Below, in pieces: positions 15,491-58,699 of a stretch of DNA of 64,000 nucleotides (position 1 is its first letter; each line of letters starts with the position of its first letter). This DNA is from Psammoneis japonica. Taxonomy: Eukaryota. Below the pieces are notes generated by a model. The model searched no databases and was not told the DNA's origin. It saw nothing but the letters and a program-made list of their open reading frames with translations. The translations under genes and the position numbers were made by a program. The DNA lies in contig QPGO01000012.1 of NCBI GenBank assembly GCA_008632985.1, positions 496,001 through 560,000 of the forward strand. Direction: 5' to 3'.

Positions 15491-15540
<50 letters not shown>
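15488..15540 (+). repeat. (CA)n microsatellite
   Basis: Perfect CA run read directly. Confidence 0.98.
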
Positions 15541-15541
<1 letters not shown>

Positions 15542-21060: not shown

Positions 21061-21568
21061 CTGCAAGAAGCAAGAAGATTGAGGGTGTCGCGCAATCGTC
21101 CAATGCCTGTGCCGTAGAATCATCCTACGGAGGAAATCAGTACGAATATTTAGTTTTCAGGGAACGATGATTTCAACTAATATGGACGTTAAAATGGGTA
21201 TTAGATATTCGTTTTTATATTTAAATTAAAATTGATGAATATTCATATTTTGATATTTAATTTCTGCTCCCATCATATGAATTTACATGATATATACATA
21301 CAGATACATTTACTAGATAAATGTTTACTGATTCCAAAGCTGTTTAGTTCTATGCAATTTTGAAATTTTTGGCAAGACACAGAACACACGACTCGCTCTT
21401 TCTGTTGCCGATTTCGCGCGCTCACAAAATGAGCAAACAAGACTTGGGGAGGGACTTGACACTCTCAATCGCGCTCTGTTCTTCGACAATCAATCAGACG
21501 ACAGTCAAGCCCCGCGAACAACACAATTTTTCGGCGGCGATAGCAGTCGCCTCTTGTCACATGGTGCC

Positions 21569-22936: not shown

Positions 22937-24829
22937 TTCAAGAACTAGAAATTTTGCAGTCGGGTGGGGGCTTGCAGCAACGGAAAATTTCATTTTGCAT
23001 GTGTTAGTTTTAGATCCAAAATTAGTTATTAATTCAGCTACCGCACGCTAGAGTGCATCAAAGGCATCCCACTCTTCAGTTGTACCACATTCATTGCTTT
23101 GGCGAGTCTGCAATTGGAAAGGGTCAGCCCGGCAAGAACGATCTGAGCAGAAGCGGATCCACGTCATTGCCACCCATCTGCGGCTGTCCTTGGTCACAAG
23201 AACGGAACATTGCATAGACTCTTTCTAACTGTGTGGGACCCAGCTTTGCCTCCCCCAGAGATGGAGGATGCTGCTGCTCTTACATGTCGTGCTGTCATGT
23301 CTTCAAGAACATTGGAGAACAGAACGATGGCACTGCTCCCCTCGAAAGTGTCCTCACTCGAGGTGATCAGAGCTGGTGCTGAAAAGGCTCACCTGAGCAG
23401 CCGCATTGTTCTCATGCTCTTGGCACCAAGCATGACACAAGTGAAACTGGCTGCATTTCTGCTGTCTGGTTGCTGTGATCACTTGCATGACATGTGTGAA
23501 ACTGGCTGCATTTCTGCCATCTGGTTCCTGCAATTCTGTCTGGTTTGTTGTTGCAACTCAACCATCCAGCAAGAACAAAATGCAACAGAAGCTAAAAGAT
23601 CCAGCTCCACATTCAAAAGAAGATCATTGAGTGAGCTCCCAATGCAACAGAAACTGCTGGACAGGCTTGATTGTCCAAATGTGCAGAAGAACTCCAATGC
23701 ATCCTTTCTGTGCAACTTTTGTGAGTGGATGTGAACAAGCCAAACTTTTTTACTTTTTGCTCCATGAAGGCATGGATGAATTTGTCAAGTCCCACCCCCA
23801 AGCAAAGCAACATTTTCCAGCAACAATGTTTCTTTGCAGCGGCTGTCATGCTCACACACCCCGAGCAAGCTGGGGACCACATCCAATTTTGTTTGCATGC
23901 TGCAGTCACCCCACACCTCCTGTTGCAGGTCACACAGGCCAGCAGCACTGGCACAAGTGGCACAAGGTCAGAGTGTCATTTTGTTGTGCTTTGCCCATGA
24001 AACTGCCCTTGCTGTCTCCATGGTCCACCACCATTGTTGGGGGAGAGTGTGCTGAAGCCAACAGTCATGCAAAGAGAACCACAGCTTTGGGCTCAAGATG
24101 CTGGCTCAATGATGGCATTGCCACTGTGGACGTGGTTGTCAGCAACAGCTCACTTGGACATCATGGCACACACTGCAGTGACAGAGGCAGCCTGTGTCAT
24201 GGCAAGTCTTGTCCATTGCATGTGTTTGTTTTTTGTCCATGACAGACAGCCAGTTGCACAGAACATGATTTTGTCAACTGTGGTGACAGATTACAATTTT
24301 TACATGGTGGGATTTGACCTCCCCAAATGGGAAAAAATCTTTCACCATGAGAAATCTGCCTTCCTTTGTCACCATGAGAATGCCCAAAATTTGTCTCCAC
24401 AAAACCTGAAAAATGAAAGCATCTTTGTTTTCCAAGTCCTCTCTGCTTTTGACTTTAATTTTGAACAACACAATGCATTGGTGTGCACTTGGCTGGTGCC
24501 AACAATTGCTCAATCACTGCTGTGCCAGTTGCTGCTGGCTGGGGTTGACAACACAACTAAAAACAGCACTGGCAGTGACAACATGGTCAAAGACAATGTG
24601 AGTGATGATGACAAAAGGTGCTGGAGCACCCAGTTCCTTGCAAGTTAAAGTTGGCATCAATGATGGCACACACAGAGAAATCTGAGAGCAGCAAGCAGTC
24701 TCTTTTGGATGTTTTGAGCATCAGTGTTTGCAGTGTTTTGAGCATCAGCATTTGCAGTCTAGAAATGCTTGTTGGAGCTGCACTCTTGGGTTGTGGTGCA
24801 AGCAACATTTTTTCTTGTTTTGGGAACTG

Positions 24830-25360
24830 GCGCCAGCATGTGAACAATCTCACAAAGGCTTGTGCCTTGCTCTGGGAGAGGTGCTCCAAGAAGGCCACAA
24901 AGAATGAGATCCAGTCAAGGTCTGACTTTGAAAGCAAGATTGAGAATGAGCCCACATTTCTTCAATCAAGGCCATCAAAGAGCACATGCTGAATCATCAA
25001 GCACACAGGGTGCAAGATCATGGCATTCATTGCTGATTCATTGAGAGCCATGTTTGGCGCCAAGCAGAAGGAGAAGAAAAGTTTCCAAGACCAAACCAAG
25101 TGACTCTGCTGGCTTTTCTGACTAAAGTGGTCAAAGCAATGTGTGATTGTGACAGCTCCAACCCAGACACTGTCAAGAAGTGCCAACACAAGGCATTCAG
25201 TTAATCACCAGGTTGCTTGCACTTGGAGAATGTGGATGAGCAAAAACATGACTCCATTTTCTCAGCACTGAGCACCCAGAAATCACTGGGAATCAATCAA
25301 TGTCTCTAGTTTGTCACAGAAGCCAGCAGTGTGTGCTGAGCAGCCACAGGTTTGACAACA
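24830..25360 (+). mobile_element. Old gag relic related to the copia family at 37.2-42.9 kb
   Basis: NNLTKACALLWERCSK...IQSRSDFESKIENEP matches NNLVKAHALLWERCSK...IQARTEFQTKIENDP at about 37965-38070. Confidence 0.75.
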
Positions 25361-25559
25361 TCTGTCAGCCCAGGGTGCAATCCTGGAAACTGGGTGGCAT
25401 GTGCAAATGGCAAAATGAAACAAGATCTCATGCAGAGAAGGAGCAGCTCAAGGACCTCATGGCAGAGAACAAGCGGCTCACAGACCTTGACAACAAGAAC
25501 AAGAGGGACAGACACCAGTTGCTCAAGGCAGTGGCTCCTTCGTCTGCCACAAAGACAAC

Positions 25560-28300
25560 AAGCTTCACAAAATGTTGAAGACATCCAAGGTCAAATTGCC
25601 TCCACACAAATCTCTTGCAGTGAGCCAACAGCTTTTTGTTGTCCCCTTGCCTGTGCAACAACAGTGCCTTCCATGCCTTGGAAGCTTGAAGTGGCCCATG
25701 CTTTTTTTCATGCACACCATGTGCAATTCCTTGATCACTGCTGCAGAAGCTTTACAACGTCAGATTTTTTCCAAGCCCTTGTGGCTCTCTCCAAGCTTGC
25801 AACCCTGCTCAATGCAGCCTTGTCACAGTGCTCAGTTACAATGACAAATGTCTTGGCTTTCCTTTCTCAGAGTGTGCCATTTCATTCTTCACATGCCTGT
25901 CATGCTTCTTGCTCCAGATCACCTTCTCTTTTTCATCCCCAGTCTTGAGACACTTTGGCTCAGAACATGCTGTTTCTTGTGAATGCAACACCAGCTGCCA
26001 TGTTGCAGTTCCATGTTTTCTTCCCACATGCTGAGCAACCCTCTCAGCAGTCTCTTCACACTCATTGGCCTTGGCACTGTGAGCTGCAGTGGTGTGCTTG
26101 TGCCCCTTCAGCTCTTCCTTGCCAAGCTTGCTGTCTTTCATCTTAACTCATTTGCCCCTTAGAAACCAGCACTGTCTTTCCAAAGAAGAGGCCAACAATC
26201 TCTTTTCCTGTGACTCCTTCAAACAGAGCAATGAATCTGCTCCAGTCACTCCTTCAATCAGAGCAACAAGTGTGCAACAACTCTGTCAGTTTGGCAAGCT
26301 CAAGCATGTTTGCTCACACTGCCCAAGTTTCAAACATCTTTTGACTTCCCAGCACCAGCCTTTTAAGAGTGACTCCTCACGGACAATGCAGCCCCTGGAG
26401 ACTCCTGTCTGTTGCATGAACCACAAATGCAGTGTGCTCATGGGGTTGCTCTAAAAAGTGACAGAGTTTGTTCTGTGGTGCCCCACACATGCACCACATC
26501 ACACCACACATCTTTCTTCTACTTCAACTGCCAATCATCTGATTGCCATCAACACATGATGTTTTCCAACAACATCAAGGCAAATTTGTCACACCCATCA
26601 CCTCCACCAAGGGCTGTTTGGGATTTGTCAAAATCATCAAGCTGGGCAACTGGCCACCAATGCACTCCCAGCAATTCCTGCAAGTCACACAAGCCCAGCT
26701 GCAAGAACACAAAGAACATCATTTGTCAAAATGCTGTGGCTGCACTGTTCACACTTGCAGATGTCATGAAAATTTGGGTGTGGGTGTGGGCATTGGGCTG
26801 GGGGGACATTGAAAGAATTGTCCACACTGGCACAAAGAATGGGGCACCGTGCTGCCTGGTGGTCATTGTTGCCAGTTGGTCATCTCAGAGAAAACTGCAA
26901 TGCAAAGAAAGAGATCACTTGAAGCAAGCTTTGTTTGCATGTTCCTTGCCATCAACTCATCTCATGTGAAAATCTGCCTGAAAACCAACTTTTCCTCTTC
27001 TTTCCCTCTGAAAAATTTTGCTGAGACTCAGCTTGCTCTCCCTCTCCAGAGCAGCACAAAAACTCAGCTTCTCTCACACTGAAGTGGCAAACTCACCATC
27101 TGCTGATCAGCTCACCACCACAGAACAACAGCTGACTCTTCACCTGCATCATTGTTGGGCTCCCACAAGAAATTGACATCTCATCAGCTGTTTCAACACA
27201 GTGCTCATGCTCCAGGAAGTCAACAAGCACCAATGTTTTTTTTTTTTGCAAGGTCTGCTGGCTCCACAAGTCTGGCTCCTTCACCCACAGCAAAAGAGAA
27301 ACCCTTTTGACTCCCTCTAAACCTTGGCATCATGTGCACAGCCTTTGCTCACCAGGTGTGACTCCAAGGGCCAGTCAAATGCACAATCTTTCTTGCAGAG
27401 CAAACAACTTGCAATTGTCAATCATGTCAGCAATTTGACTTGCTGCTGCTCTCAGCAGAATGAGTGCAAGTTGTGTGGGTCTGCACACACCACATGCTTT
27501 TGTGTTGTGCATCTCCTGCTGTGAGAGTCCTGTGTCACAATCCATTGATGGCACATTGCCAGCTGCGAGTGGCAAAATGCATGCTGCAGAGCACCCATTT
27601 CATCATGTTGTTGGCTCATGCATGAATTGGAAATTCTGTTCCCTTCATTTGTCACAGTGCCTAAAACATGTTTTCCACCACACTTGCGTCAGTCAGCCAG
27701 ATTGCAACATTTTTTTGCTGTGACAAACAGCTCGATCAACTTGTTGAGAGCAGGTGCAAGTTTCAAAATGTGTGTGGTTGTCATGATTTTTTGTTTTTTC
27801 ATGGCTGCACACAAACTCAAAGGCTTGGGCAAAATTCATCACAAGTGTGGCAGTTTTCCCATTCCATCAAATTTTGGTTGCTTTTCACACCCCAGAGGGC
27901 TTGGCACAATGTGGGCACCAGCACAGTGCACCAGTGTGGCATTTTGGGAGGGACAAACATGTGAGATGGAGCTGCATGCACACTTGCAAAAATTGCCAAT
28001 TGAGTTCTTCAAGAGCTGGCTTTGGAGGCTCAGTCTCTTGGGAGCTTTTTTTCATTTTGATGACACAAGTTTTTGATGCTTGGAGCTGATCATTCCTGAG
28101 CAGCATCTCAGCTGTGAGCAACCAGCCAGTCTCATCTCTCCTGTGGCTGGAGCAACAATTTGCACTTTTCACTGTGAGCAATGACTGGCCCATTGAGTCC
28201 AAATGCAACCAATGTTTGAGCCTCAACTCTCTCTGTGTGCTTCTTCAAGCAAGAGTTTCAGCCATCAGCAACAGATTAACCACGCAAATGAGGAGACACC
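25560..28300 (-). mobile_element. Highly decayed retrotransposon fragments
   Basis: gag-like ELKGHK...ETAERVAQHVGRKHG (25836-26141) and pol-like LMEWEN (about 27850); heavily mutated. Confidence 0.4.
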
Positions 28301-28739
28301 AGCATGCAGTGTTCTTTCCAAAGAGGGCTCCAGTTTGTGGAGACAAAAGGGATGTGCCCTTTTCATGACCCAATTTCATGGACACTGAGCCCAATTTGTG
28401 CTCTGCACTCAATTTTGACTGAAGCACTTGCAGAGCTGCAAGCAACAAGAACAGGCTGAAACTTAAAGCACCCCTGTGCTTTTTTAATCACATTGCAGTG
28501 CATGGCTCTTAGCATTAACTGAGTTGGTGTGTCACCAAAAAAAACTGCCTTGAGATTGCACCTCCAATCACATTGCAACATCCCCCTTTTCATTGATTGA
28601 GCTGACAGTGGTGGAGCATCTTTGCCAAACAATTGCCTCGGGCATTTGCAGCAGAATCTGGTCCATTGTCAGAGACAAACCAGTTGAAACAAAAGCACCT
28701 TTTTCTCTCTCTAGTCAAAAAACTCAAGCAATGCTGTTG

Positions 28740-30200
28740 CAACAACAAGGAGGGCACTTTTGTCCCAACCCTTGTTGCATCAAACCACCCGGGGTCATGT
28801 TCCCCACACAGTTTGCTCTGAGGTGTCACCTCAACCACTGCAATGCTGCAGTGGATGAGTCCAGTTTGGCTTTGGAAGAATCTTCTTCACCTCTGCCCAT
28901 CAGGCATGTGGGCCGAGATGTTTCCTCAGACAATGGCAATGAAGAGAATGCACTCATGCAAGAGGAAACCCTTCCTGAGGGCAACTCCTTCACAACAGAC
29001 ATTGATGAGGGGGGTGACGATGCATTTCTTGGCACCCAGCACATTCAGAACATTGACAAGAGAGAGAGCGTTTCCCCTTCCACGCAACAAGGTTCATCCC
29101 CTCCCCAGCCAGAGCTTTGTTGCTCCAGAAAGATTGCCTCCAACCAAAGAGGCCAGAACAAACCACTGGCTCATTTCAATTTGGCAGAGGAAACTTGGCT
29201 TGGCCCCAACAGAGTGTCATCCGTTTCCTCTGTGGACAGGACTGTGACACAAACTGCAAAAGATGCATTCCAGCTCCAGGTGGGACTCCGCTTGACATTG
29301 GGCCCGCAGAATTCTGCATGCCAGCTGCACAGCAAAATTGTCAAGCAACAAAAATGTGAATGATCGCCAACAGAAAAAGAGGCAATTTTGTGAATGCATC
29401 TCCTCCTTCACACTTGAAGCACATCATTGACAGTTTGCCCAGGTGTGGTTCGCAGATGTCAAAGAATGCACCCGGCCCATTTTCATTCTCCTGAGTGTTG
29501 AAAATGGAAAGCCTTTGGCTTCGCAAAACAGGTGGCATATGAAACAATTTCATAGAAATTCACACGCAGATGTGTGCGTGCACGACATGTGGTGTGATGA
29601 AAAAAACTCTTGATGTCACAGCTTGGCAGTGCAAGGTCCTGCCTGGAGCTGGAGCGCATCGAAAATGCTTTGGCGCCCATTGAGTTTCTTCCTCCACCCC
29701 CTCAGATGGCAAAGAGGAGGATGACATCATTGACGAAGGTTGGGCTCAACCCCAGTGTTCTGATGCAGTTCATGACTGCTTTTTTGCCGCCTGACGACAC
29801 AGAAGAGGTTGCTTGGTTCCTCCCTCACATGGAGCTCACAACACAAATGACAATGCCTGGCTTGTCATCTGAGCCAAGGTGCAGCACACTGTTGACCCAA
29901 GTGTTGCTTTCCAAGAACGAGAAGCATTTGTCGAAACTGCTGTGCACTTGCGACAACATGCATGCTCCGAAAAGATGCTTCCGAGACGTGTTGGACTGGG
30001 CACGCAATGCCAGCGATGACCAACTCGATTTCACCTGCTTCTCGGGCGACAAAGACAAGTTCGTCAATCAGCTTCAGGGCACGTTCCGCCTGCCTCCACC
30101 CACCACCGTTTGCATCGCACAAGAACATGCTGGAGGAACGCCGCTTCATCTGCGCTCTCCGTGGACGTTGTTGTTTGGGACGCGGCATCTCAGACTGTAG
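28740..30200 (+). mobile_element. Decayed transposon-like ORF (possibly Plavaka-like N-terminus)
   Basis: Zn-finger-like CPNPCC...F...L..H and LSKLLCTCDNMHAPKRCFRDVLDWA segment; the family call is from recall only. Confidence 0.3.
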
Positions 30201-33495: not shown

Positions 33496-34127
33496 ACAGC
33501 TTGAAAGCCTGCAGATGTTTCGCGTTCTGCGTCAAGACATCAAAATCCGAATAAATATCAAACATGTGAGGCAGGACGAGTTTTAGAAGTAGTTTTTTTA
33601 CACGTACATAGATCACAATTAAAGCAACGAGACTTTGTAAATTACCCCAAAGACTTGGACGTACCCAGAGATCAATCTAGATTTGCGCATTCTGTTCATA
33701 TATCTTTTCTGAAAAGACAATGCAAAATCGGCTTTTTGGATTCGTCTGTAGATTCGGGCACGAGAAGCAATTTGACGGGAATTTAGAAATGTCACGCGAG
33801 GTCCAGCTACAGTGCATAGTTTAGAAGAACGAGCATGTCGCTCAGCGGGTCAATTCATTACAATCCACAATCGACACCGTCACCAATTGCTGAGGATGCG
33901 TGATGTGGCATTACGGTGCTTGTTCGCATGTTCCTCAAGAATGCAACGATCTGGCACCACATCGCTTCGACCATGTTGATTCTCATCAAAACCCATCTTT
34001 AACACAAAGAAAGCTCACCTGCCACGAGTGACATTGTCTCAAACCTGAATCTCCTGAAGATCTCGTAGCGGATTCATTGTTTCATGCATCCAGCCCAACA
34101 AAATGTAGCCGCTCACGACATCTTGAA

Positions 34128-34355
34128 TGACTTGTGCCAACGTGAGTGCACTCCACCCTCGAGTCGTTCCATTGTTTGACAACACTTTTCAAAATGCGCG
34201 TCACATTGAAGCGACGAGCGACATCCAACATGGTGAGCCAACAGGTGTCGGCGTGTTTGGTGTTTTCTTCCAAGGCCCACTTGAGTGCAACATGAGTTGG
34301 ACCCACACCGGCAGCCTTCCACACCTCAATGAGATGCTTCCAAATCTCCGCCCAT
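34128..34355 (-). pseudogene. Fragment of a eukaryotic/archaeal-type tyrosyl-tRNA synthetase gene
   Basis: After an AG acceptor: MGGDL...KHLIEVWKAAG...DTCWLTMLDVARRFNVTRI..KCCQTMERLEG..LTLAQV, matching TyrRS MGGDL..YLIEVWKA...YW...DIAR....RI..CCQIMGR...LTAAQ; contains indels. Confidence 0.7.
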
Positions 34356-35059
34356 CTGCACACAGTGGAGACACACACAGCATGTTGGAAAATGAAATGA
34401 GAGGAAATCACAACAATGCAACAATGCGTTTCATTTTCTTTTTTTGTTCATTTCGTTTTACCTCACCATGCATGAGAGCGCACTGGTCGGCAACCCAAAA
34501 AGCAAAGGTCGAGTTGGTTCCATTCTGCGGTGCATCAAAGCATGCTTCGCTGGCCCAACTGGTTGCAATTTTCTCTCATCATTGCTTGTGGCAGGTGTGG
34601 CGGTGTTGCTGTGTAACAGCAGCTAGCTGGCAGTCCAGGTCTTACAAGGCGTTGGATGCATTGCACCGGCATGCAGTCTACGTGTTTTTTTGTGCGTGCA
34701 AATTGCAGTGGGATCAACCCCAAACGCGACGCACTGGCGATCAGACCGCCTTCGACGATCTCACTGCGCTGCCAAAGACCCCCCCCCAAGCCAAGTTGCT
34801 GGCTGAAGAATCTTGGCGTGATGGAATTTGCACTGGAAGAGTCTGTTAATCTGTGCGTTGTGGTGGGGGGTTTTGGTGAACGCAGGACAGAATCGACGTC
34901 TTTTACGTGCGTAAAAATTGCACTGGCAAAACCCCCAAATGCACTGACAGGCAGACTTTTTCCAGCCAGCAGCTGCTGGCTGGAGACGTCCCCCCAGGTG
35001 ACGTCCCCCCAGATCGTCGGCATCTCTGGGGCATTCGATCGCACAAGGAAGCGGTCAGC

Positions 35060-35180
35060 AAGACAGCCCTTGCTTGCTCCTTTGGGCTTTGGGGTCACAG
35101 CCCTCGCTTGCTCCTTTGGGCTTTGGGGTCACAAACGGCACAGCTCCTCCTGCAGCCAACCAGCCCTTGCTTGCTCCTTC
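35060..35180 (+). repeat. About 34-bp tandem repeat (cagcccttgcttgctcctttgggctttgggg), resumed at 43669-43720
   Basis: Units at about 35063, 35097 and 35161; the last is interrupted by the LTR element and continues after it. Confidence 0.8.
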
Positions 35181-35873
35181 TGTTGGAAATGGCGAATTAA
35201 AAGTTCAAACACCAAAGTTAGACAGCGTGAAGAAGACGTACGCTTCAGTGCTCATGTGCTCCACGTGAAGCACCAAAACAGCCGATGGAAGCAGTCGTTG
35301 TTCTCTTTTGACTCTTGGAAAGTGTTGTGACAACAAGCTTGTCTATTTTGGCCTCAGGATCAGACCTCAGAGGACTGAGGTGGCTCTGGAATGGTCGCCA
35401 GAAGGACAAACCACAACAGTTAAAAGAGAACAATCCAGCCAAGAGCTGTGAAAAGAAAGTGAGAAAGAAAAGAGTCGTTCTCACAGTGTGCAAGACATTT
35501 TGCTGCTTTGCCTTTTTGTCACAAGTGGAAGAGGCAGAGGTGGAACTGGCAACAGAAGCCAAGGAAGAGGACCCTCAGGAAGGGGAAACAAGAGTGGCAA
35601 GCAAAGCCACAAGGGCATCAATGATTGTGTGTGCTGTGTTGGAAGTGCCAAGCAAGCATCTGATTTTCAGATTGCTGCTGAGTTCATCATCAACTGCATC
35701 AAGAAGACTTGTGAGTTTGGAAACGACATTGCAACTGCACTCAACACTTGCACTCCATGTGACATGAGTTCTAAAAAGCCGACTTTGCAGGTGAGCTTGA
35801 CTGGAGATGACAAGGTGGGCATGCAATTGAACAAACCGCATGAAATTGAGTTCAAGAAAGAATTTGATGCTCA

Positions 35874-37232
35874 TGCATGCATCGTGAATCGTGCACGCAC
35901 TTCTGCCGTGTTCGCTGCGTGGGGGTCCGCCGGGCCCACCAAGCCTTCAGGGTGCGCCGTGATCTCCGTGGCCATCCCGGCGTCATCCGAGAGTCCTGCC
36001 ATGGGCACATGCGTGGGTGCCTTTGCAAATTACCCTGATCTTCCCGCCTTCTGGCAGTGGAACGCATGCCATTGCAATGACAAGCCGGGGGTCGCAACAT
36101 CCTGCAGTCTGACCCCCAACTCAGTGACAGAGAGGCGTTTCCTCGGCAACTTTGATGCTCCACCCAGTGTTGCCCATGAGTTTGAAGGGAGGTCACTCAT
36201 GCATCTTCGGCAATGCACGTCTCGTCAGGAAGGCCTGTGCACACACAGGTGGACCTCAGACACGAGTTCAGGACATCCACGCAGTGACTGTCGTCTGTGT
36301 CATCCTCCTCCACGTCCTCAAACTCAGCGCACTCAGCGGCCAAAGTTCTTGGTCAGGACAAATGCACCAGCGGCGGCAAGGCCCATCTCTTCCGGAGGGT
36401 ACGGTGCCACCGCAACTGGTTGGCGACCAGGTCCCCGGCTCTGGGGCATGGGCATTTCCGTCCCAAGGCTGAGCGGGTCCAATGACGGTGGCAGGGTGGG
36501 TTGAAACGCGATGGTGCACTTGAACCGTCCCTTCATCCGGCGCGCCCTGCACATGGCTGCGGCGTGTTAACGCCATCGGTGCATTGTGCTCGGATGCCGC
36601 AGACACCCTCTGCGCCAGGGCTTGTGGGTTGTGGCATGATGGGCCTTGCACACGGGCAGCAAAATCAATCATGGGCTCAGCATGGACTCCTTGGTGTGGG
36701 TCCTTGTTGTTTGCCATGAAGTGATCGTGGTGCGTCCTGAGGTTTCCCTGTTGTGGGACCTGGGCTGTGCCGGCTTGCTGTGCTGGTTGGGCAGCTGCCT
36801 GTGGCTGTGTGCCCGGCACCCCTTGTGGCGCTTGGCCCGTGGGTGCACCCAGTGGTGGCTGGGCCGGTTGTCCTGCTGGTGGCACAGGGTGCACCGGCAG
36901 AGGCGGCATGTTCGACGGTGGTTGTGGTGGTTGCCCGGCCGGGCGGTTGCCCGCCCCCTTGGTTCACGGCGTTTGGTGGCTGGTTGTTCACACTGCGTGT
37001 TGCGTCGACTTCTTTCTGTGACAGGGCAAAGACGGCGGAGGTGTCCTGCATCGCGGTCTTATGGCGATTAAACTGTGCTGACAACAGCGGCTTGTCTTTG
37101 TCAATCTTGAAAGAATGAGACAAGCCAGTGATCGAGGAAAAACAACAACCCAACCTTTGCAGCACGTTCAACGTGCGTGCGTGGTTCAACAGGTGATGGG
37201 TCTTCTCCCCGATTCTGGCACTGGATGAGGAC
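35874..37232 (-). other. Foreign 1.36-kb insert with a Pro/Gln/Ala-rich ORF remnant inside the outer element
   Basis: No similarity to the inner element. Minus-strand ORF 36268-36909 continues in other frames. Junctions at ...gatgctca| and |agtcggcagtgtc. Confidence 0.6.
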
Positions 37233-37245
37233 AGTCGGCAGTGTC

Positions 37246-40200
37246 TGTTGGAAATGGTGAATTAAAAGTTCAAACACCAAAATTAGATGGCGTAAAGAAG
37301 ACGTACGCGTCAGCGCTCATGTGCTCCACGTGAAGCAACAACCACAGCCGATGGAAGCAGTCATTGTTCTCTTTTAACTCCCAGAAAGCATTGTGATGAC
37401 AAGCTTGTCTATTTTGGCCTCAGGATCAGACCTTGGAGGACTGAGGTGGCTCTGGAACAGTCACCAGAAGGATGAATTGCAACAGTTAAAAGAGAACAAT
37501 CCAGCTGAGAGCTGTGAAAAGAAAGCAAGAAAGAAAAGAGTCATTCTCACGGTGTGTGAGACATTTTGCTGCTTTGCCTTTTTGTCATGAGTGGAAGAGG
37601 CAGAGGTGGAACTGGCGACAGAAGCCAAGGAAGAGGACCCTCAGGAAGGGGAAACAAGAGTGGCAAGCAAAGCCACAAGGGCATCAATGATTGTGTCCAC
37701 TGTGTTGGAAGTGCCAAGCAAGCATCTGATTTTCAGATTGCTGCTGAGTTCATCATCAACTACATCAAGAAGACTTGTGAGTTTGGAAATGACATTGCAG
37801 CTGCACTCAACACTTGCACTCCATGTGACATGAGTTCTAAGAAGCCGACTTTGCAGGTCAGCTTGACTGGAGATGACAAGGTGGACGTGCCATTGAACAA
37901 ACAGCATGAAATTGAGTTCAAGACAGAATTTGATGCTCACATTAAGAGGGCCCAAACTTGTGAGAACAACCTTGTCAAGGCTCATGCTTTGCTCTGGGAG
38001 AGATGCTCCAAGGCCATGAAGAACAAGATTCAAGCAAGAACCGAGTTCCAAACCAAAATTGAAAACGATCCCATCGAATTGCTCAAGGCCATTAAGGAGC
38101 ATGCATTGAACTGCCAAGAGCACAGGTGTGACATGGCTGTCATCTCAGATTCAATGAGAGCGGTGCTGGAAACCAAGCAGAAGGAGAAGGAGAGTCTCCA
38201 AGATTGCACCAAGAGATTCAGGGTTGCAAGGGACATCATGAAGTCTCACATTGGAGGACCAATTGTCCTCACCAAGGCAGTGCAAGGCATGTCACAATGC
38301 GACGAGCACAATGCGGATTCTATCAAGAAGTGTCAAGAAAAGGCGTTCAGCCAATTGATGGGTTACATGCACTTGGAGAATGCAGACCAGCGCAAGTGCG
38401 GATCAATTCTAACAGGATTGAACACTCAGCAGTCCCTCAAGAACGACCAATGTCCCAAGTCCATTACGGAAGCCAACACGGTGTTGAGCAACCACAGTTT
38501 TGACTGCGTTGGTCAGCCTGACAACTGCCGCAACAGGAACAATCAAAACAACAACTCTGACTCCAAGAAACAAGAAGAAAACCAAGAAATCACACTGTCC
38601 TTTGCTCAGCTAGAAGGCAAGTGTTGCTGCTGTGGCAAGGCCGGACACAATTCCAACAAGTGCTGGGAAAGGCAAGGAAAACCTCAAGCAGAATGGGCCA
38701 TCAACAAGGCCAAAGCTGAGCAAGAAGCAAGCAATGCTCAGGCGAGTGAAGATGCCAGTGCAGCCAACTCTTCTGCCAAAGAATCCACTGGAACAAAATC
38801 CACTGTTTCAGGATGGGCTGGCATGCACATCGATGCATCTCTCTGCCAGGATCAACATGGCAGCATGAGAGACTGGATTTTATTGAACAACCAGTCCACA
38901 ACCACAATCTTGTGCAATGAGAAGCTCGTTGCAGACATCTGTCCATCGGATGAAGCCATGCATTTGCACACCAATGGCGGAGTCCCAGTCATGACACACA
39001 AGGCTGCGGCGCCAGGGTTTGGTGAGACTTGGTTTAACCCAGATGCAATCACCAACATTTTTGCTCATTCTGACATGAAGAAGAAACACAGAATCACAAG
39101 TGATTCTAAGCAAGACAATGCATTCACCGTTCATCTCCCCAACAAGAAGGTCAGGTTCGAGGAGGACGGAAAAGGGCTGCACGTTTGCAAGCCCAAGACA
39201 AATGACACTGGAATTCAGCTCCAATTTGTGCAGAGTGTGGAAGAGAACAAGAAGTTCTACACTCCACGACAGTTCGAGAAAGTCAAGAGGGCCAGGGAAT
39301 TGTTGCATGCGTTGGGAAACCCAACCGTGAACGATCTGAAGGCCATCATTTGCATGAACAGCATCAAGAACAATCCCGTCACAATGGAGGATGTAGATTT
39401 GGCCGAGAAGATTTTTGGACCAGACATTGGAAGTCTAAAAGGCAAGGTCACAAGGCAGAAGCCGGCACCAGTTGTAGAAGACTGCGTGGAGATCCCGAAG
39501 GAGCTCATTGCAGCGCAACACAAGGTCACTCTTTGCCTGGACGGTCTCAAGGTGAATGGATTGCCATTCCTCACCACAGTGTCACGAAACATTTTTTATC
39601 GCATGGCACAACCGCTCAAGGACTTGACCCAACCCACTCATCAAGAAGCTCTGGAAGATGTGCTGCGAGTCTACAACAAGGCCGATTTGAAGGTCACACG
39701 CATTCGTTGCGACAACGAATTCAGGCCCATTGGGAGTGCACTAAAAGACAAGTTTGATCTCAAGATGAACTGCGCAAATGCTCAAGAGCATGTCCCAGAA
39801 GCTGAAAGAAACAACCGAGTTGTTCAAGAACGTGCCAGGGCCGTCTGTCATCAGCTGCCGTTCAAGCATCTGCCAAAACTCATGGTCGAAGTCATGGTCA
39901 CCGAAGCTGCTGAGAAGCTCAATTATTTTCCAGCCAAGCACGGCGTTTCCAAACATTGCAGTCCGAGAATGATTCTCCATCAAAAGAATCTAGACTGTGA
40001 CAAGAGCTGCAAGATCACGTTCGGCACTTGTGTGCAAGCTCACAATGACCCGGACCCCAAGAACACCCAAGAGTCACGGACCTTGGATTGCATTCATTTG
40101 CACCCCACCGACAGCAACCAGATTGGACATGAGTTGCTGCACTTGCAAACTGGCAAGAAGATCACTCGTCGCAAGGTCACCCTTGTGCCCATCACTCCCG

Positions 40201-42880
40201 CCATCACAAAGCAGGTTCATTGTTTGGCTGAAATGAACAAGATGCCCAACGGCCTCAAGATTCAGAACCACACTGGAACTGTTTTGTGCGACAGTGCTTG
40301 GCTTGCAGGAGTGGATTGTGATGAAGATCAATTTGAAGACAAAGATTGTGATCTAGAAGAAGACACTGAAACTGAAGACGATGAGGAAGAAGAGCCAGAC
40401 TGGGGAGACTGCGACAGAGTTAGTCAAGAAGAGCTGCAAGACATAACTCAAGAACAAGAATTGGATGAAGAAGCCAGCTGCATCAGCGAAGAACAAGACG
40501 AGACTCAAGAAGAAACCTCCAATGATGAGGATCTCGGAGACAATGACAAAGTTGGTTCTCAACCGTCAGACGGCAGCGGAATTTCACAAGAAATCGACGA
40601 CATGATTGACCACATTGATGAACAACAGAGGCTGGAACAAGAGAAGGAACACTCTTCGGAAGTGCAAGAGATCATCGACGAAATGAAAGACCTGGAATCT
40701 GATGACGAATCTGGAGAGGAGCAGAGTGAAACCGAAGAAAGTGTTCAAGAAGAGCCTGTTGCTGCGTCCAGGGCAGGAAGGACTCTGAAACCTCCAGTTA
40801 GATTGGGAGACCACCAATGCCATCTACAGACTCAAGCTCATTCACAAGAAGAAGAGTGCAGCTTAGAAACGGCCAGAATCATGGCCGCGACAATGTGTCA
40901 GTGGAACGAGAAGGTCAGCACGATTTCCACTGATGAAGAAGCACATCATTTCATTCAGACTTGCAGCTTGGCACGAGGACTCCAGAAGTTTGGAGAAGAA
41001 GGCCACAAGTCGGCAGTGTCAGAGCTGAAGCAAATCCATGTAGAGTGGTTTTCAAACCCATTCACATCAATGACATGACTCCTCTGGAGAGGAAGAGAGC
41101 CATGGAGAGCCTCATGTTTCTCACAGAGAAGAGAGATGGACGAATCAAGTCAAGGTTGTGTGCAAACGGAAGCACGCAACGAGAGCACATGGACCAAGAC
41201 CAAGCCGCCAGTCCGACAGCATCCACAGAATCTGTTCTCGTTGCAGGAGTGATTGATGCCAAGCAAGGCAGAGACGTTGTGACAGCGGACATCCCGAACG
41301 CATTTGTGCAAACGGACATCGAGGTCAAGGATGAAAAGATCATCATGAAGATCCGTGGAAGGATGGTGGACATGTTGCTGGAATTGGATCCAGACACTTG
41401 CCAGGACTGCATCGTGTGTGAAGGCAAACACAAGGTTCTCTACGTTGAAATGTTGAAGGCGCTCTGCGGAATGCTGGTGTCCTCCATTCTTTGTCACAAG
41501 AAGTTCCGCAGAGACATCGAAGGAATCGGATTTGAGGTTGATCCTTGTGATCCATGTGTCGCCAACCGCATCGTGAATGGAAAACAACACACGGTGACAT
41601 GGCATGTGGACGATTTAAAGTCCAGTCACGTTGGCAGCAAGGTCAACGATGAATTCAAGATTTGGTTGGACAAAACTCACGCGGATGAGATCGGAAAGGT
41701 CAAATGCACGCGTGGAAAGAGGCACGACTGTCTAGCCACGACTCTAGATTGCTCCATTCCAGGAGCACTGCAAGTTGACATGGTGCTTTATGTGCAAGGA
41801 ATGGCCAAGGAATTCTTCAAGGAATTCCCAGAAGAATTGTCGGGTGACGTGGATTGCCCGTGGAGCGAGAAGCTCAACAAGGTGGATGAGACAGCCAAGA
41901 AATTAGATCTCAAGCATGCTCGAGCATTTTGCACTTTTGTGATGAAGGGCATGTTTGTGTGCAAGAGAGCCAGACAGGACATTCAGCCTGGCATTGCTTT
42001 TCTCTCCACCAGGGTCAAGGATCCGAACGAATCGGATTGGCCAAAGCTGGTGAGGCTCATGAATTTCCTCAAGACAACCCAGCTTGATGTCACAGTCATG
42101 TTGGCTGGAGACAAAGTCATCATCGAGTGGCACACGGATGCCGCATTCGCAGTCCATCCGGACTGTAAAAGTCACACAGGTTCTGCCATGACCCTTGGAA
42201 AAGGTGTCATTACATCAGTCAGCACGAAGCAGAAGATCAACACCAGGAGTTCTACAGAAGCAGAGATCGTCGCAGGAGATGATGTTTTGGCAAAGGTCCT
42301 TTGGACCACGCATTTTGTTGAAGCTCAAGGTTTTGAAGTCGAGCGCAACATCATGCATCGAGACAATCAAAGTTGCATGAAACTAGAACAAAATGGAAAG
42401 GCCAGCTCGGGCAAACGCACGAGACATTTCAACATCAAGTGTTTTTACATCACTGACCTCATCAAGCCAGGAGAACTTGAGATCAAGTTCTGCCCAACGG
42501 ACAAGATGATGGCAGATTACATGACCAAACCAGTGGTTGGTAAAAAGTTCATTGTTGATCGTCAAGCCATCATGAACATCCAAGTGCCTGAGATGGTCAA
42601 ATTTGGAAATGGCAAGAATCTTGTCATTGGTCAGCAGGAGTGTGTTGGAAATGGTGAATTAAAAATTCAAACACCAAAATTAGATGGCGTGAAGAAGACG
42701 TACGCGTCAGCGCTCATGTGCTCCACGTGAAGCAACAAAACAGCCGATGAAAGCAGTCATCATTCTCTTTTAACTCTTAGAAAGTATTGTGATAACAAGC
42801 TTGTCTATTTTAGCCTCAGGATCAGACCTTAGAGGACTGAGGTGGCTCTGGAATAGTCGCCAGAAGGATGAATTACAACA
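37246..42880 (+). mobile_element. Inner full-length Ty1/copia (CoDi-like) element nested in the same family, TSD GTGTC
   Basis: LTRs 37246-37484 and 42643-42880; GTGTC on both sides; gag-Zn knuckle-protease-integrase ORF 37566-41078 (RCDNEF, HVPEAERNNR); RT/RNase H ORF 40961-42730 (DIPNAF, WHVDDL, TRSSTEAE); 1-nt deletion frameshift near 41040; PPT agcaggag. Confidence 0.96.
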
Positions 42881-44448
42881 GTGTCAGAGCTGAAGCAAAT
42901 CCATGACAGAGTGGTTTTCAAACCCATTCACATCAATGACATGACTCCTCTGGAGAGGAAGAGAGCCATGGAGAGCCTCATGTTTCTCACAGAGAAGAGA
43001 GATGGACGAATCAAGTCAAGGTTGTGTGCAAACGGAAGCACGCAACGAGAGTGCATGGACCGAGACGAAACCGCCAGTCCGACAGCATCCACAGAATCCA
43101 TTCTCATTGCAGGCAAGGTTTTGAAGTCGAGCGTAACATCATGCATCGAGACAACCAAAGTTGCATGAAACCAGAACAAAATGGAAAGGCCAGCTCGGGC
43201 AAACGCACGAGACATTTCAACATCAAGCATTTTTACATCACTGACCTCATCAAGCGAGGAGAACTTGAGATTAAGTTCTGCCCAACAGACAAGATGATGG
43301 CAGATTACATGACCAAACCAGCGGTTGGTAAAAAGTTCATTGTTGATCGTCAAGCCATCATGAACATCCAAGTGCCTAAGATGGTCAAATTTGGAAATGG
43401 CAAGAATCTTGTCATTGGTCAGCAGGAGTGTGTTGGAAATGGTGAATTAAAAGTTCAAACACCAAAATTAGATAGCGTGAAGAAGACGTACGCGTCAGCG
43501 CTCATGTGCTCCACGTGAAGCAACAAAACAGCCGATGGAAGCCGTCATTATTCTCTTTTAACTCTTAGAAAGTATTGTGATAACAAGCTTGTCTATTTTA
43601 GCCTCAGGATCAGACCTTAGAGGACTGAGGTGGCTCTGGAACAGTCACCAGAAGGATAAATTACAACACCTTCGGGCTTTGGCAACCAGCCCTTGCTTGC
43701 TCCTTTGGGCTTTGGGGCAGCAACAAGCATCATGTGCGAGTGCTTGGCTTTGACAAATCCCGTCAACTGTGCCCAGAAGAGCAACAGGAGCTGCGCAGAC
43801 AATTGTGGTCAATTGCCCGGAAGCCTTGTCAAGTGTGGCCCAATCAGAAAAATGATCAGAACAACTTGCCTTTGGCTTTGACAAGTCCCATCAACTGCAG
43901 TGGTCTACTCAGCAGAGACAGTTGTGGTGGTTCCCAACACAACTGCCAGGAAGCCAGACAAGTGTGATCAGAAGTTCAACAAGAAAAATGATCAGAACAA
44001 CTGCCACCGACTTTTTGCTCTTCGAGGTCCTGAGATGAGCATTTCTTTTGTTACAAAAGTGTGATGAGTCACAGAGCGTACACTCTTGTTGAGCAATTGG
44101 CAGTGCCAGACAACTCCCAAATGTGCCCATTGGGCTCAGTGTGCAAGAAGAAGGAGGAGTCCATGCAGATCCCAGGGAAAAGAGTCTAATCTTCCAAGCA
44201 TTGCTGACATTGAGTGGCAACAGCAGGCATGTCAGCATGCTTACAGGAAGTTCTGATGTTCGAGCCTTTAAGAAAAACTCTTTGTGAGCTTCCGGACTTG
44301 TCAAAAACATGATTTCAAAATTTTCAAGAGATCAACAGAGTGCTCAGAATGCCAGGGGTTGGAATTGGGGGGGGGGGGGGGGAATGGCCCTCTCAAAATC
44401 TTCAGGAGTCCCAAAATTAGATGCAGAACCTGAAAATAGTCAAGCTGA

Positions 44449-45297
44449 GGCTCGGTCTACAGGTGAACCGAGCCGGATCGGATCGCCGGATCGACTCCTT
44501 CATAACCCATTAAAATGTTAGTCCATCGAGTCAAAAAGTCGATCCGTGGCCTTCGTGGGACTGATCCGCCATCTCGGATCGGACGGTCTTCGGAGCAAAA
44601 TATTTTGCTCCGAAGACCGTCCGATCCGAAAATCCGGATCGGATGTCGGATCCAATTTTGAAGATTCCGTGCCGTCATCACGACAATAGCACAACATCAC
44701 ACGATTATGACACAGAACGGCATAAGATTCAGCCATAAGGGCAAGGAACATTCTGAGCATTATAGTCAAAGTCTTCCCATGCTCGAAATGACGATGAGAA
44801 AGGTCGCATGGCAATAGAATAGCTTGTCAAACCGATAATGCCGTATAGATTTGTTGGAGAAACATTGAATAAGCAAAATAACAAGTATTTATTATTGAAT
44901 TCGAAATTTCAATACGAAAACATTTGCATTAGTTTCCTAATTACAAAAGTGATAGCTTTTTCTTCCTTAGCGTTGCTGCGAACACTGAGTGACAACGATT
45001 CTCAATGATGCGGTCTCATATGTATGTATAGCAGTAATAACAGTATGGTTCTGTCGTCATATCGTCACGTTATGACAAGATGTGAAGCATCATGGCCACA
45101 CTTCTTGTTGTTCGCTGTTGTCAGCGCTTTGTTGTTCTTGGGAGTTTGGAATCTTGAAACTTATGTCGTTTTGCGACTCACATCAAAATGTCGAATCCGA
45201 TCCGCGATCCGATCCGGTTCCACCTGTCGACTAACGGAATTCTGACGCGATCCGATCCGTCGATCCGATCCGGCGCGGTTCACCTGTAGACCGAGCC
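44449..45297. mobile_element. PIF/Harbinger (Tourist-like) MITE, 849 bp, 3-bp TSD TGA
   Basis: TIR ggctcggtctacaggtgaaccg / cggttcacctgtagaccgagcc; TGA on both flanks; subterminal GATCC/GGATC repeats; no coding capacity. Confidence 0.85.
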
Positions 45298-58460: not shown

Positions 58461-58699
58461 AATCCAGAACGGCGACAAACAACTGGGAAGCGAATTGAGC
58501 GCTTCTCTTTTCGCTTTTCAATGACTCAAATGAATGAACAAACGGAATACCCAATCTGAACTGAGATAGAGACTGTCTCAGTCGCTTTCTTTGTTATATA
58601 ACAAGAACAACACTAGCACAGCGATGACACTCCGCACGCACTGCGGCAAATAATAAGACACAACAAAACAAACCCGGCAATGCGCGCGCGCTTGAAGCA

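Follow-up and report, generated by a model that had tools for sequence, protein, structure and literature searches.

Probable transposon-targeted change of TpA to TpG or CpA in integrated Ty1/copia elements of Psammoneis japonica

LTR retrotransposons in a 64,000-nucleotide stretch of Psammoneis japonica DNA (referred to here as the window) are depleted in the dinucleotide TA, and copies of the same LTR differ mainly at TA sites, where TG or CA is found instead. The explanation that we consider probable is a post-integration, DNA-level mutation of TpA to TpG or CpA, which is targeted to transposons, affects both strands, and is similar to RIP but opposite in direction. Such a process would act on the chromosomal DNA of integrated LTR retrotransposons, with its activity limited to transposon-type blocks, and an A:T-to-G:C change at either base pair of the TpA step would give TpG or CpA. 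Tyrosine codons would become Cys or His codons, and signals containing TA would be erased. TAA and TAG stops would never be made, and so long but dead ORFs would persist.

Two nested Ty1/copia elements

The four LTR copies in the window are two true pairs which belong to nested Ty1/copia elements, an outer element E1 (LTR1 and LTR4) and an inner element E2 (LTR2 and LTR3; Table 1). All four are direct and read TGTTGG...ACAACA, with TG...CA ends. Each pair has its own 5-bp target-site duplication, therefore the two members of a pair were identical at insertion. E2 is inserted within the pol of E1, and the E1 pol sequence resumes beyond it; the target sequence GTGTC is also present in E2's own pol, near 41014-41018. 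The first internal part of E1 (35419-35880) has 92% identity to E2 37485-37939, or 98.7% in purine/pyrimidine space, and in the 3' remnant of E1, which carries an internal deletion when compared with E2, a piece of the RT start is fused to the end of RNase H. The GC-rich stretch at 35881-37240 is without any Pfam family match, and its depth in the public run X1 is around one to three times single-copy. Self-comparison of the window in ordinary and purine/pyrimidine space gave no further LTR pairs, and when the two ends of block 2 were aligned locally, the score of 97 fell short of shuffled controls (mean 105.6, maximum 132).

On their sequence features, E1 and E2 are Ty1/copia LTR retrotransposons of the diatom CoDi-like type. 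Both an RVT_2-type reverse transcriptase (RT), with integrase upstream of it, and LTR ends with 5-bp duplications are present. The RVT_2 score of E2 (29.9 bits) is slightly below the Pfam cut-off of 31.6 because this copy is mutated, and no Pfam integrase match was obtained for E2 itself. Among 8000 candidates scored, 1921 homologues of the E2 RT were found at E <= 0.001; most of the best 120 of these carry PF07727, with identity of up to 66%. A longer homologue (P0011) also aligns upstream of the RT, across 39975-41039. The nearest named RT homologues among those listed come from Nitzschia, Epithemia and Attheya (55-60% identity), and the nearest named homologues of a host ABC/pectinacetylesterase gene come from Seminavis robusta (46% identity). 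The window is probably part of a diatom-like nuclear genome.

Table 1. Features of the nested elements and TA-poor blocks, in positions of the window
Feature	Position	Strand	Remarks
E1 left target-site duplication, CCTTC	35176..35180	+	Direct reading; same 5 bases after LTR4
LTR1, E1 5' LTR	35181..35418	+	11/15 ancestral TA sites lost (6 to TG, 5 to CA); TA o/e 0.24
E1 5' internal remnant, leader and gag start	35419..35880	+	TA o/e 0.06
GC-rich stretch in place of most of E1 interior	35881..37240	.	TA o/e 0.10
E2 left target-site duplication, GTGTC	37241..37245	+	Repeated at 42881-42885
LTR2, E2 5' LTR	37246..37484	+	10/15 ancestral TA sites lost (7 to TG, 3 to CA)
E2 interior	37485..42642	+	gag-protease-integrase ORF 37587-41078; RT-RNase H ORF 41075-42640; TA o/e 0.13
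LTR3, E2 3' LTR	42643..42880	+	3/15 TA sites lost; TA o/e 0.61
Right GTGTC copy (42881-42885), then E1 3' internal remnant	42881..43430	+	TA o/e 0.16
LTR4, E1 3' LTR	43431..43668	+	1/15 TA sites lost; TA o/e 0.71
E1 right target-site duplication, CCTTC	43669..43673	+	Direct reading
TA-poor block 1	1..21100	.	TA o/e 0.086; other copia remnants
TA-poor block 2	23101..30200	+	TA o/e 0.066; degenerate E2 relative (gag similarity 24837-25373)
TA-poor block 3	33901..44500	.	TA o/e 0.169; E1/E2 nest and TA-poor flanks
TA-poor block 4	58601..60900	.	TA o/e 0.125; CG o/e 0.10 in kilobase 59001-60000

TA sites in the LTRs and the direction of change

Alignment of the four LTR copies with MAFFT gave 239 columns, of which 35 are variable, and 21 of these 35 lie inside the 32 TA-site columns (binomial P = 1.6e-10; Fisher P = 2e-13), in a sample of one locus and two LTR pairs. 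This is the comparison of differences at ancestral TpA with expectation that an initial annotation of this DNA had proposed, here run on the four LTRs. TA occurs in at least one copy at 16 dinucleotide columns, with nine showing TA, TG and CA, three showing TA and TG, and four being invariant TA. Column 48 (TA/TG) is probably a gain of TA from TG in LTR2 and was set aside, which gives 15 ancestral TA sites, their ancestry being assigned by parsimony over the four copies with no outgroup LTR. The annotation had described about 12 variable TA sites, in agreement with the nine three-state and three TA/TG sites counted in the alignment, and the seven examples that it quoted were all found (columns 43, 120, 144, 152, 189, 213 and 228). 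As it had also noted, CG is present at none of the 12 variable sites in any of the four copies, and at six genuine CG sites the four are identical.

The pairs defined by target-site duplications bear out the claim that the changes arose after integration. LTR1 and LTR4 differ at 12/30 TA-site columns, compared with 6/22 CG-site columns and 3/187 others, and LTR2 and LTR3 differ at 9/30, 1/22 and 6/187, respectively. Per column, substitution at TA sites is approximately 10-25 times as frequent as in the background, and faster than CpG decay at this locus. Both TG and CA are found in each 5' LTR, with an LTR total of 15 TG to 10 CA (P = 0.42), which supports the claim that both strands are affected; the 7 Cys and 5 His seen in the RT (see below) likewise show the two strands to be struck about equally. 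Judged by eye, the outcomes follow each other along LTR1, LTR2 and the RT in a seemingly random strand order.

A different origin for the TG and CA states would be ancestral methylated CG, with ordinary CpG decay producing TG or CA by a single deamination and TA by a double one. CpG decay is indeed active here. Where they overlap, E1 and E2 have 92.4-96.8% identity, or 98.7-99.6% in purine/pyrimidine space, and their differences over 1486 columns include 14 CG/TG or CG/CA, alongside 16 CA/TG doublets, 12 TA/TG or TA/CA, 10 other transitions and 11 transversions. CG o/e is as low as 0.04-0.27 per kb in some blocks, and other genomic copies have CG in place of the window's TG or CA at 4/40 of the best-supported variant positions. 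However, the lack of CG at the variable TA sites and the invariance of the true CG sites argue against this origin, and the TA in the least-mutated LTRs would have to be the product of two hits at around 12 sites each, without single-hit intermediates. Between 1 and 4 kb of the window, TA o/e is 0.02-0.12 yet CG o/e is 0.83-0.95; because this region kept CG while losing TA, TA loss is independent of CpG decay.

An outgroup test of direction is provided by comparison of the E2 coding part with 60 homologues, in columns with conserved Tyr (17) or Arg (20). Of the conserved Tyr (TAY) columns, 7/17 are now Cys (TGY) and 5/17 are now His (CAY) in E2, whereas 0/20 of the conserved Arg columns, which would include CGY, have become Cys or His (12/17 vs 0/20, Fisher P = 3e-6). 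Since Tyr and not Arg is found at the Cys/His columns, the ancestral state was TA rather than CG, and descent from CG appears largely refuted for the coding part. CG in an outgroup was the finding on which the initial annotation said its claim would turn; such CG is not seen in the coding part, and for the LTR sites the same answer comes by four-copy parsimony. Independent change of TA to TG or CA is supported by the nine three-state sites, their freedom from CG and the Tyr columns, and we regard ordinary CpG decay as extremely improbable.

Changes could also have been made before integration, through A-to-I hyper-editing of double-stranded transposon RNA or deamination of cDNA during reverse transcription. 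LTR2 and LTR3 have derived TG in common at columns 43 and 228, and the E2 parent may have carried some of the changes. The E2 interior is also more mutated than the E2 3' LTR, and retroviral cDNA-editing gradients can give a superficially similar picture. Both LTRs of an element are made from one template, yet the partners differ at the 12 and 9 TA-site columns given above. RNA editing predicts A-to-G on one strand, sense RNA alone being reverse-transcribed, whereas the outcomes in the LTRs and the RT fall on both. Under the strand-transfer scheme, late single-strand exposure would be expected to leave the 3' LTR with more hits, but it is the 5' LTRs that are mutated, and the flanks outside the element are TA-poor too. 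Pre-integration editing is therefore quite improbable in our judgement.

Of the TA sites in the 3' LTRs, 4/30 have been lost, compared with 21/30 in the 5' LTRs (P = 1.6e-5), and the DNA flanking each 3' LTR is TA-poor on both sides. The sparing of the 3' LTRs is not expected of a process that acts uniformly along the chromosome, and leaves room for gene conversion, short-read polishing toward the family consensus, or a position effect. A regional gradient was rejected as the cause, as the DNA between and beyond the 3' LTRs is TA-poor. A cause at the stage of reverse transcription was also rejected, by reasoning from the strand symmetry and the wrong expected direction. Because the two LTRs of one element differ around tenfold in TA loss, post-integration mutation of TpA may have come in local bursts and not at a steady, clock-like pace.

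TA depletion across the window

Four TA-poor blocks make up 41.1 kb of the 64-kb window, with TA o/e of 0.066-0.169 and edges that are sharp to around 100 bp, and copia protein or sequence matches are found in 3/4 of them. The 41 kb affected, its limitation to these blocks and the large sparing of the 3' LTRs go beyond what the initial annotation described. The copia remnants of block 1 include RVT_2 at 3429-4766 (+) and integrase-type domains at 10331-12610 (-), and an ORF of 1192 codons at 2-3580 has zero Tyr. Block 2 has a CG o/e of 0.04-0.07 over 24-29 kb. Pfam gave no identity for block 4, and 22 further ORFs of the TA-poor blocks gave weak sub-threshold LRR and LETM2_N matches only.

In the blocks, CA/TG is enriched (1.6) and TA depleted (o/e 0.07-0.17), and GC content is higher with TA loss (50.9% vs 46.6%). 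Tyr makes up 0-0.8% of six transposon ORFs vs 1.5-4.1% of five host ORFs. In the two E2 ORFs it stands at 0.5% and 0.8%, with Cys and His at 2.9-4.0% each, and it is at least 2.6% in all 120 of the best homologues listed. The preferred target is a TA with a 5' purine and/or a 3' pyrimidine, chiefly A and T, and Y-TA-R survives. Among the 264 TA that survive in the 41.1 kb, ATAC is found 0 times, ATAT once and GTAT three times, and TTAA 44, TTAG 37 and CTAG 21 times (the last 2.35-fold enriched).

Outside the blocks, TA o/e is 0.54 in host-gene DNA, 0.61 in three pooled introns (24 TA in 528 bp), and 0.67 and 0.59 in the ORF-free stretches 45486-49299 and 55222-57542. TA is under-represented in this host DNA too (0.54-0.67), and low-copy stretches in and beside the nest are TA-poor, as would be expected if TpA were hypermutable genome-wide and without targeting, with genes keeping TA by selection and the blocks being old neutral DNA. 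A milder form of this explanation is a by-product of chromatin state with no defence role. However, the introns and ORF-free stretches, which are presumably neutral, retain TA at levels within the range of related elements. In 78/78 related copia loci from metagenomes, TA o/e was 0.40-0.91 (median 0.67) compared with 0.163 in E2, this control being selected by conserved peptides, so that heavily mutated relatives could be missed. The LTR pairs are also young (1.6-3.2% background divergence), yet 67-73% of the TA sites in the 5' LTRs have been lost, and LTRs of the same age are around tenfold apart (11/15 vs 1/15). Together with the sharp block edges, this makes an untargeted bias unlikely.

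Contigs were also built from exact 31-letter words of run X1, which may be the assembly's own sample. At depths of around 55-80, these agreed with host DNA at every one of 2079, 656 and 2412 bases, and over the TA-poor stretch 35907-36666, at single-copy depth (50.5 and 41.6), there were 3 differences. Comparison of X1 contigs with the window over the transposon gave 167 transitions and 25 transversions, the best-supported of these differences including four CA-to-TG doublets. This implies that the copy-specific transposon sequence in X1 is real and stable. A sequencing or assembly artefact, in which a long-read basecaller wrongly reads modified TpA bases in transposons as G or C, randomly in each copy, would mimic confinement to blocks, sharp edges, random TG or CA and apparent Tyr loss, and polishing could have produced the near-consensus LTR3 and LTR4. 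The exact host contigs, the close match over the TA-poor stretch, and the many contigs that represent variant transposon copies differing by transitions, including CA-to-TG doublets, make an artefact very unlikely.

In X1 the E1/E2 family is at approximately 13-35 times single-copy depth. TA-poor DNA at 43669-44417 is at single-copy depth, and a high-copy repeat at 44418-45485 is undepleted (TA o/e 0.57). The low-copy, TA-poor stretches at 43669-44417 and 35881-37240 indicate that present-day repetitiveness is not the mark of a target; they may be old transposon remnants. Run X2 has intron-like joints on the neighbouring host DNA and hardly any depth over the transposon.

Comparison with known systems and implications

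RIP of Neurospora and other fungi depends on RID/DIM-2 and changes CpA/TpG to TpA (C:G to T:A), with a gain in AT content and new stop codons. To our knowledge, the well-described systems of transposon point mutation (RIP, methyl-CpG decay and APOBEC) all involve cytosine deamination and work toward A:T. The process proposed here would share with RIP its action on integrated DNA and not RNA, its restriction to repeats or transposons with sharp edges, and its dinucleotide-specific transitions on both strands, as well as a very high local rate, dead copies and seemingly episodic action. In contrast to RIP, TpA is the substrate, GC content goes up and no TAA or TAG stops are made; the TpA excess that is a hallmark of RIP is absent, with TA depleted in the direction of TG/CA. 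RIP is restricted to duplications, and the E1/E2 family is multicopy, yet low-copy stretches are TA-poor and the neighbouring repeat is undepleted. A deaminating enzyme of the cytosine methyltransferase type, as in RIP, cannot account for A:T-to-G:C changes. Diatom DNMT4 is described as a RID relative without an assigned function, and diatom transposons as CpG-methylated (PMC9998398).

Methyl-CpG decay also acts on either strand of a self-complementary pyrimidine-purine dinucleotide to leave TG or CA, and co-occurs in some blocks. It differs in its substrate, with TA lost here where CG is intact, and faster than CG in the LTR pairs. ADAR-type enzymes change A to G with a preference for a 5' U/T. 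Editing of retroelements is described both for APOBEC3 acting on cDNA and for ADAR hyper-editing RNA (PMC4866542). Both are similar to the present case in being enzymatic, with clustered, context-dependent transitions that inactivate retroelements, but they act before integration, on one strand, and leave the same edits in both LTRs. Such shared and strand-biased edits are absent here, where partners differ and both strands are struck. Very-short-patch repair in Escherichia coli turns T:G mismatches into C:G and is probably responsible for a shortage of CTAG. It illustrates how repair tuned to the products of methyl-cytosine deamination can fix T-to-C changes at TpA words, but its bias is genome-wide, slow and confined to one tetranucleotide, whereas CTAG is among the best survivors here.

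In the natural target of the tRNA deaminase TadA, U precedes the edited A, and engineered adenine base editors derived from TadA deaminate adenine in DNA to give A:T-to-G:C changes. Among natural enzymes, we know of none that deaminates DNA adenine in transposons. Adenine deamination in DNA is nevertheless feasible, and deaminases exist in stramenopiles, where uncharacterised members with SAM and Tudor domains are predicted (PMC3239186). Our preferred chemistry, which takes about one third of the confidence we have in the overall reading, is that a putative DNA-acting deaminase turns the adenine of 5'-TA-3', on either strand, into inosine, which is then read as G. The main chemical alternative, inseparable from it by sequence, would be oxidation of thymine at TpA to 5-hydroxymethyl- or 5-formyluracil, which mispairs with G.

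In the literature searched, mostly at the level of abstracts and outside subscription journals, we found no description of TpA-specific transposon hypermutation. Removal of TpA from transposons, if true, would be a new chemical route to their inactivation, and would imply an undescribed diatom enzyme or DNA modification, for example a deaminase of adenine or an oxidase of thymine that acts at TpA. We infer that the process may be a genome defence like fungal RIP, or a by-product of one, working in the opposite chemical direction. It would explain why these elements escape domain and repeat finders, as with the RVT_2 score of E2. In such genomes, stop-free dead ORFs would be mis-annotated as genes and dating by LTR divergence would be badly biased; purine/pyrimidine recoding, in which copies are 98.7-99.6% identical, would be a simple aid to finding them.

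A more specific suggestion, which we put forward as tentative and rather doubtful, is that this lineage or diatoms in general have a natural adenine-deaminating DNA mutator at 5'-TA-3', guided by chromatin or homology, a form of 'reverse RIP'. If true, this would kill elements through the loss of Tyr codons and TA-containing signals, raising GC content without making stops. It would be the first natural genome defence based on DNA adenine editing, and a possible source of a context-specific DNA adenine deaminase for duplex or transiently opened DNA.

Nested elements and the differences among their LTRs

The four LTRs form the ends of two nested Ty1/copia elements, an inner E2 lying within pol of an older E1. 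CCTTC is found on the outer sides of LTR1 (35176–35180) and LTR4 (43669–43673), the 5' and 3' LTRs of E1, and GTGTC on those of LTR2 (37241–37245) and LTR3 (42881–42885), the 5' and 3' LTRs of E2; E1 pol resumes 3' of LTR3, and therefore E2 sits inside it. Among 8000 candidates scored, 1921 are homologues of the RT ORF at E <= 0.001. RVT_2 occurs in most of the 120 best listed, the closest named of which come from the diatoms Nitzschia, Epithemia and Attheya, and the nearest relative of the adjacent host gene (pectinacetylesterase and ABC transporter) is from Seminavis robusta (46% identity). The host is accordingly taken, provisionally, as a diatom and probably a raphid pennate one.

Features of the window (o/e, observed/expected dinucleotide frequency)
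Feature	Position	Strand	Remarks
TA-poor block 1	1–21100		TA o/e 0.086
RVT_2	3429–4766	+	copia match, block 1
Integrase-type domains	10331–12610	-	copia match, block 1
TA-poor block 2	23101–30200	+	TA o/e 0.066
gag relative	24837–25373	+	copia match, block 2
TA-poor block 3	33901–44500		TA o/e 0.169
LTR1	35181–35418	+	238–239-bp LTR family, TGTTGG...ACAACA
E1 5' piece	35419–35880	+	one of three remaining E1 interior parts
E1 GC-rich replacement	35881–37240		fills E1 interior; unrelated sequence
LTR2	37246–37484	+	238–239-bp LTR family, TGTTGG...ACAACA
E2, full-length inner element	37246–42880	+	ORFs 37587–41078 and 41075–42640
LTR3	42643–42880	+	238–239-bp LTR family, TGTTGG...ACAACA
E1 3' piece	42886–43430	+	internal deletion; from sequence comparison with E2
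LTR4	43431–43668	+	238–239-bp LTR family, TGTTGG...ACAACA
TA-poor block 4	58601–60900		TA o/e 0.125

The GC-rich replacement stands in place of about 3 kb of E1 interior and has a GC content of 60%, a TA o/e of 0.10 and a depth of about 1–3x single-copy in the public sequencing run X1. A Pfam search of it found no family, and it includes a proline-rich frame (36268–36963, minus strand). The target of E1 was a short tandem array with a roughly 30-bp unit (...cccttgcttgctcctttgggctttgggg...), which resumes on each side of the element (35040–35180 and 43674–43720).

When the four LTRs are aligned, 35 of 239 columns are variable. TA is present in at least one copy at 16 dinucleotide columns, nine of which show TA, TG and CA, three TA and TG only, and four invariant TA. 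These TA-site columns (32) hold 21 of the 35 variable columns (binomial P = 1.6e-10), and the six genuine CG sites are invariant. The initial annotation had described TA sites resolved to TG or CA among the sister LTRs and never to CG; the alignment bears this out, with CG absent from all four copies at the 16 columns and all seven quoted examples (e.g. gaTAgc/gaTGgc/gaCAgc) located. TTA has become CCA in one copy each at LTR columns 136–138 (37381–37383 region) and 232–234 (35411–35413 region), the T preceding the mutated TA likewise now being C, which hints that changes cluster over short tracts.

Both LTRs of an insertion derive from a single template and are identical at the start. Because the partners now differ at TA sites, the changes there postdate integration, as had been proposed. 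In the E1 pair, differences occupy 12/30 TA-site, 6/22 CG-site and 3/187 other columns, and in the E2 pair 9/30, 1/22 and 6/187 respectively; TA sites thus change at about 10–25x background per column, and at this locus they outpace CpG. The further claim that both strands are affected also holds, since TG and CA occur together within single LTRs (6 TG and 5 CA in LTR1, 7 TG and 3 CA in LTR2), the pooled 15:10 showing no departure from 1:1 (P = 0.42).

Direction and sequence context of the change

In the genetic code TAY specifies Tyr, TGY Cys, CAY His and CGY Arg. The RT ORF was aligned with 60 homologues, a Tyr column being one with Tyr in at least 60% of them. At 17 conserved Tyr columns the window has Cys (7), His (5), Tyr (4) or Phe (1), versus Arg in 18 and Cys or His in none of 20 conserved Arg columns (change to Cys/His, 12/17 against 0/20, Fisher P = 3e-6). 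Judged by this alignment, in which Tyr gave way to Cys/His and Arg was spared, the ancestral state at the RT coding sites is TA. An ancestral CG, with TA arising by double deamination, was the alternative raised in the initial annotation; it is ruled out at these sites because conserved Tyr, not Arg, gave Cys/His. Of three such Tyr codons common to E1 and E2 and read by eye, two have become Cys in one element and His in the other.

Overlaps between E1 and E2 are 92.4%, 95.7% and 96.8% identical, rising to 98.7–99.6% in purine/pyrimidine space. Their 1486 aligned columns contain 16 CA/TG doublets, 12 TA/TG or TA/CA and 14 CG/TG or CG/CA differences, 10 other transitions, 11 transversions and 2 gap columns, and therefore no excess of transitions outside TA and CG. 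Outcomes are opposite at 10 of the 13 TA sites lost in both elements (P = 0.09).

Sequence context affects which TAs are lost. Among the 264 that survive in the TA-poor blocks, ATAC (0), ATAT (1) and GTAT (3) are rare, and TTAA (44), TTAG (37), CTAA (23) and CTAG (21) are frequent; elsewhere in the window all seven contexts are about equally frequent. TA with a 5' A and/or 3' T therefore goes first, and Y-TA-R persists. All four changes in LTR3 and LTR4 are in the favoured context. The flanking base has no predictive value for the strand affected in the LTR alignment, which fits a motif read to both sides of the edited base.

TA depletion across the window and its exceptions

TA o/e is 0.295 for the whole window and bimodally distributed, the four TA-poor blocks summing to 41.1 kb and the other 22.9 kb having an o/e of 0.58. 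Block borders are resolved to about 100 bp; near 30200, TA counts per 100 bp run 0, 0, 0, 0, 0, 1, then 8, 7, 6, 5. Copia matches lie in three of the four blocks (1–3), and GC content is 50.9% within the blocks versus 46.6%. Six transposon ORFs have 0–0.8% Tyr and about 3–6% each of Cys and His; Tyr is 1.5–4.1% in five host ORFs. Presumably neutral DNA beyond the blocks retains TA, both in three introns defined by spliced contigs (24 TA in 528 bp, o/e 0.61) and in ORF-free stretches (0.59 and 0.67). TA can be lost without CpG, the two being uncoupled: at 1–4 kb CG o/e is 0.83–0.95 and TA o/e 0.02–0.12, and at 24–29 kb each is below 0.1.

Several local features accompany this pattern. TA and CG are both gone at 16001–20000, 24001–29000 and 59001–60000 (CG o/e 0.04–0.27). 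A 529-bp segment of block 1 (5622–6150) matches its own reverse complement at 77%, or 92% in purine/pyrimidine space, and is a large decayed palindrome. A weak LRR_8 match on the minus strand (18960–19529; 25.2 bits, cut-off 27), where TA and CG are low, could be a piece of a mutated host gene or due to chance. Within 32951–34601, four contig joints from a second public run, X2, skip 33147–33263, 33527–33664, 33746–34018 and 34356–34461, with CT..AC ends equivalent to GT..AG introns of a minus-strand gene. Its upstream exons fall within the TA-poor, partly repeated E1 flank, as does its last intron, which has 1 TA over 106 bp, and the TA process may here be spilling over into transcribed host sequence. 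The only N of the window is at 47510.

Beyond the window, TA o/e ranges over 0.40–0.91 (median 0.67) at 78 related copia loci taken from metagenomes, none approaching the 0.163 of E2, and Tyr is at least 2.6% in 120/120 listed homologues; both controls were picked via conserved peptides, by which strongly mutated relatives were possibly missed. X1 contains 51% of sampled words from the window. Its contigs show 0 differences from host DNA over 2079, 656 and 2412 bases (depth about 55–80) and 3 over TA-poor 35907–36666 (depths 50.5 and 41.6); X1 may, however, come from the assembly's own sample, and no library type is recorded for it. Across most of E2 the depth is about 700–2000, and therefore some 13–35 copies exist. 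The 16 kb compared yield 167 transitions and 25 transversions between X1 and the window; in the 40 variant places with the best support there are 4 CA->TG doublets, and the window's TG/CA is TA in 3 and CG in 4. That X1 reproduces host and TA-poor DNA, with variant copies differing mainly by transitions, argues against a long-read basecalling artefact as the source of the TG/CA calls.

The 3' LTRs do not fit the general pattern. TA sites lost number 11/15 in LTR1 and 10/15 in LTR2 versus 3/15 in LTR3 and 1/15 in LTR4 (21/30 vs 4/30, P = 1.6e-5), so that LTR3 and LTR4 (TA o/e 0.61 and 0.71; 5' LTRs 0.24 and 0.35) are TA-normal islands in TA-poor surroundings. A regional gradient is rejected because the DNA between them (0.16) and beyond (0.12) is TA-poor. 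The sparing could be chance, given n = 2 elements, or young copies may have acted as donors in gene conversion; polishing toward the family consensus and real biology are further candidates. LTR3 has two derived TG states in common with LTR2 and is therefore not a simple overwrite. A high-copy repeat at 44418–45485 (X1 depth about 1000–1180, also in X2; TA o/e 0.57, CG o/e 1.32) has escaped the TA process. It contains a 78-bp palindrome (44563–44640) and adjoins 128-bp tandem repeats (45704–45959).

Possible mechanism and relation to known systems

Integrated transposon DNA is thus subject to a dinucleotide-specific A:T->G:C process that has sharp borders and affects both strands. We infer that it is RIP-like in targeting and consequence, without possible use of RIP chemistry. 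RIP proper has a similar logic but the opposite direction of change, CpG decay has the wrong substrate (here TA, not CG), and ADAR/APOBEC-type editing ahead of integration is rejected as LTR partners differ and both strands are mutated.

The process erases Tyr codons and TA-containing signals and raises GC content, and dead ORFs stay long because TAA/TAG can never arise from it. Stop-free frames at 2–3580 (plus strand) and 10331–12610 (minus strand), of 1192 and 759 codons, have zero Tyr, 4.2–4.4% Cys and 5.0–6.1% His. They are dead transposon DNA that gene finders would call as genes, misled because the process removes TAA/TAG and cannot make them.

Two routes can be envisaged, in which adenine might be deaminated at 5'-TA-3' or thymine at TpA oxidised to a G-mispairing base. 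tRNA-type adenine deaminases read U/T ahead of the target base, and adenine deamination is the favoured candidate partly for this reason. The other reason is that uncharacterised deaminases bearing SAM and Tudor domains are reported from stramenopiles (PMC3239186). Diatom DNMT4 is described as a RID-like enzyme without assigned function (PMC9998398); of the changes seen here it could explain no more than the CpG component. Searches of the literature outside subscription journals found TpA-specific hypermutation of transposons described neither for diatoms nor for any other organism. All conclusions here come from a single 64-kb window with its two LTR pairs. Within that scope the process is rated as belonging with transposon-directed point mutation, and the enzyme behind it has a real chance of being categorically new.
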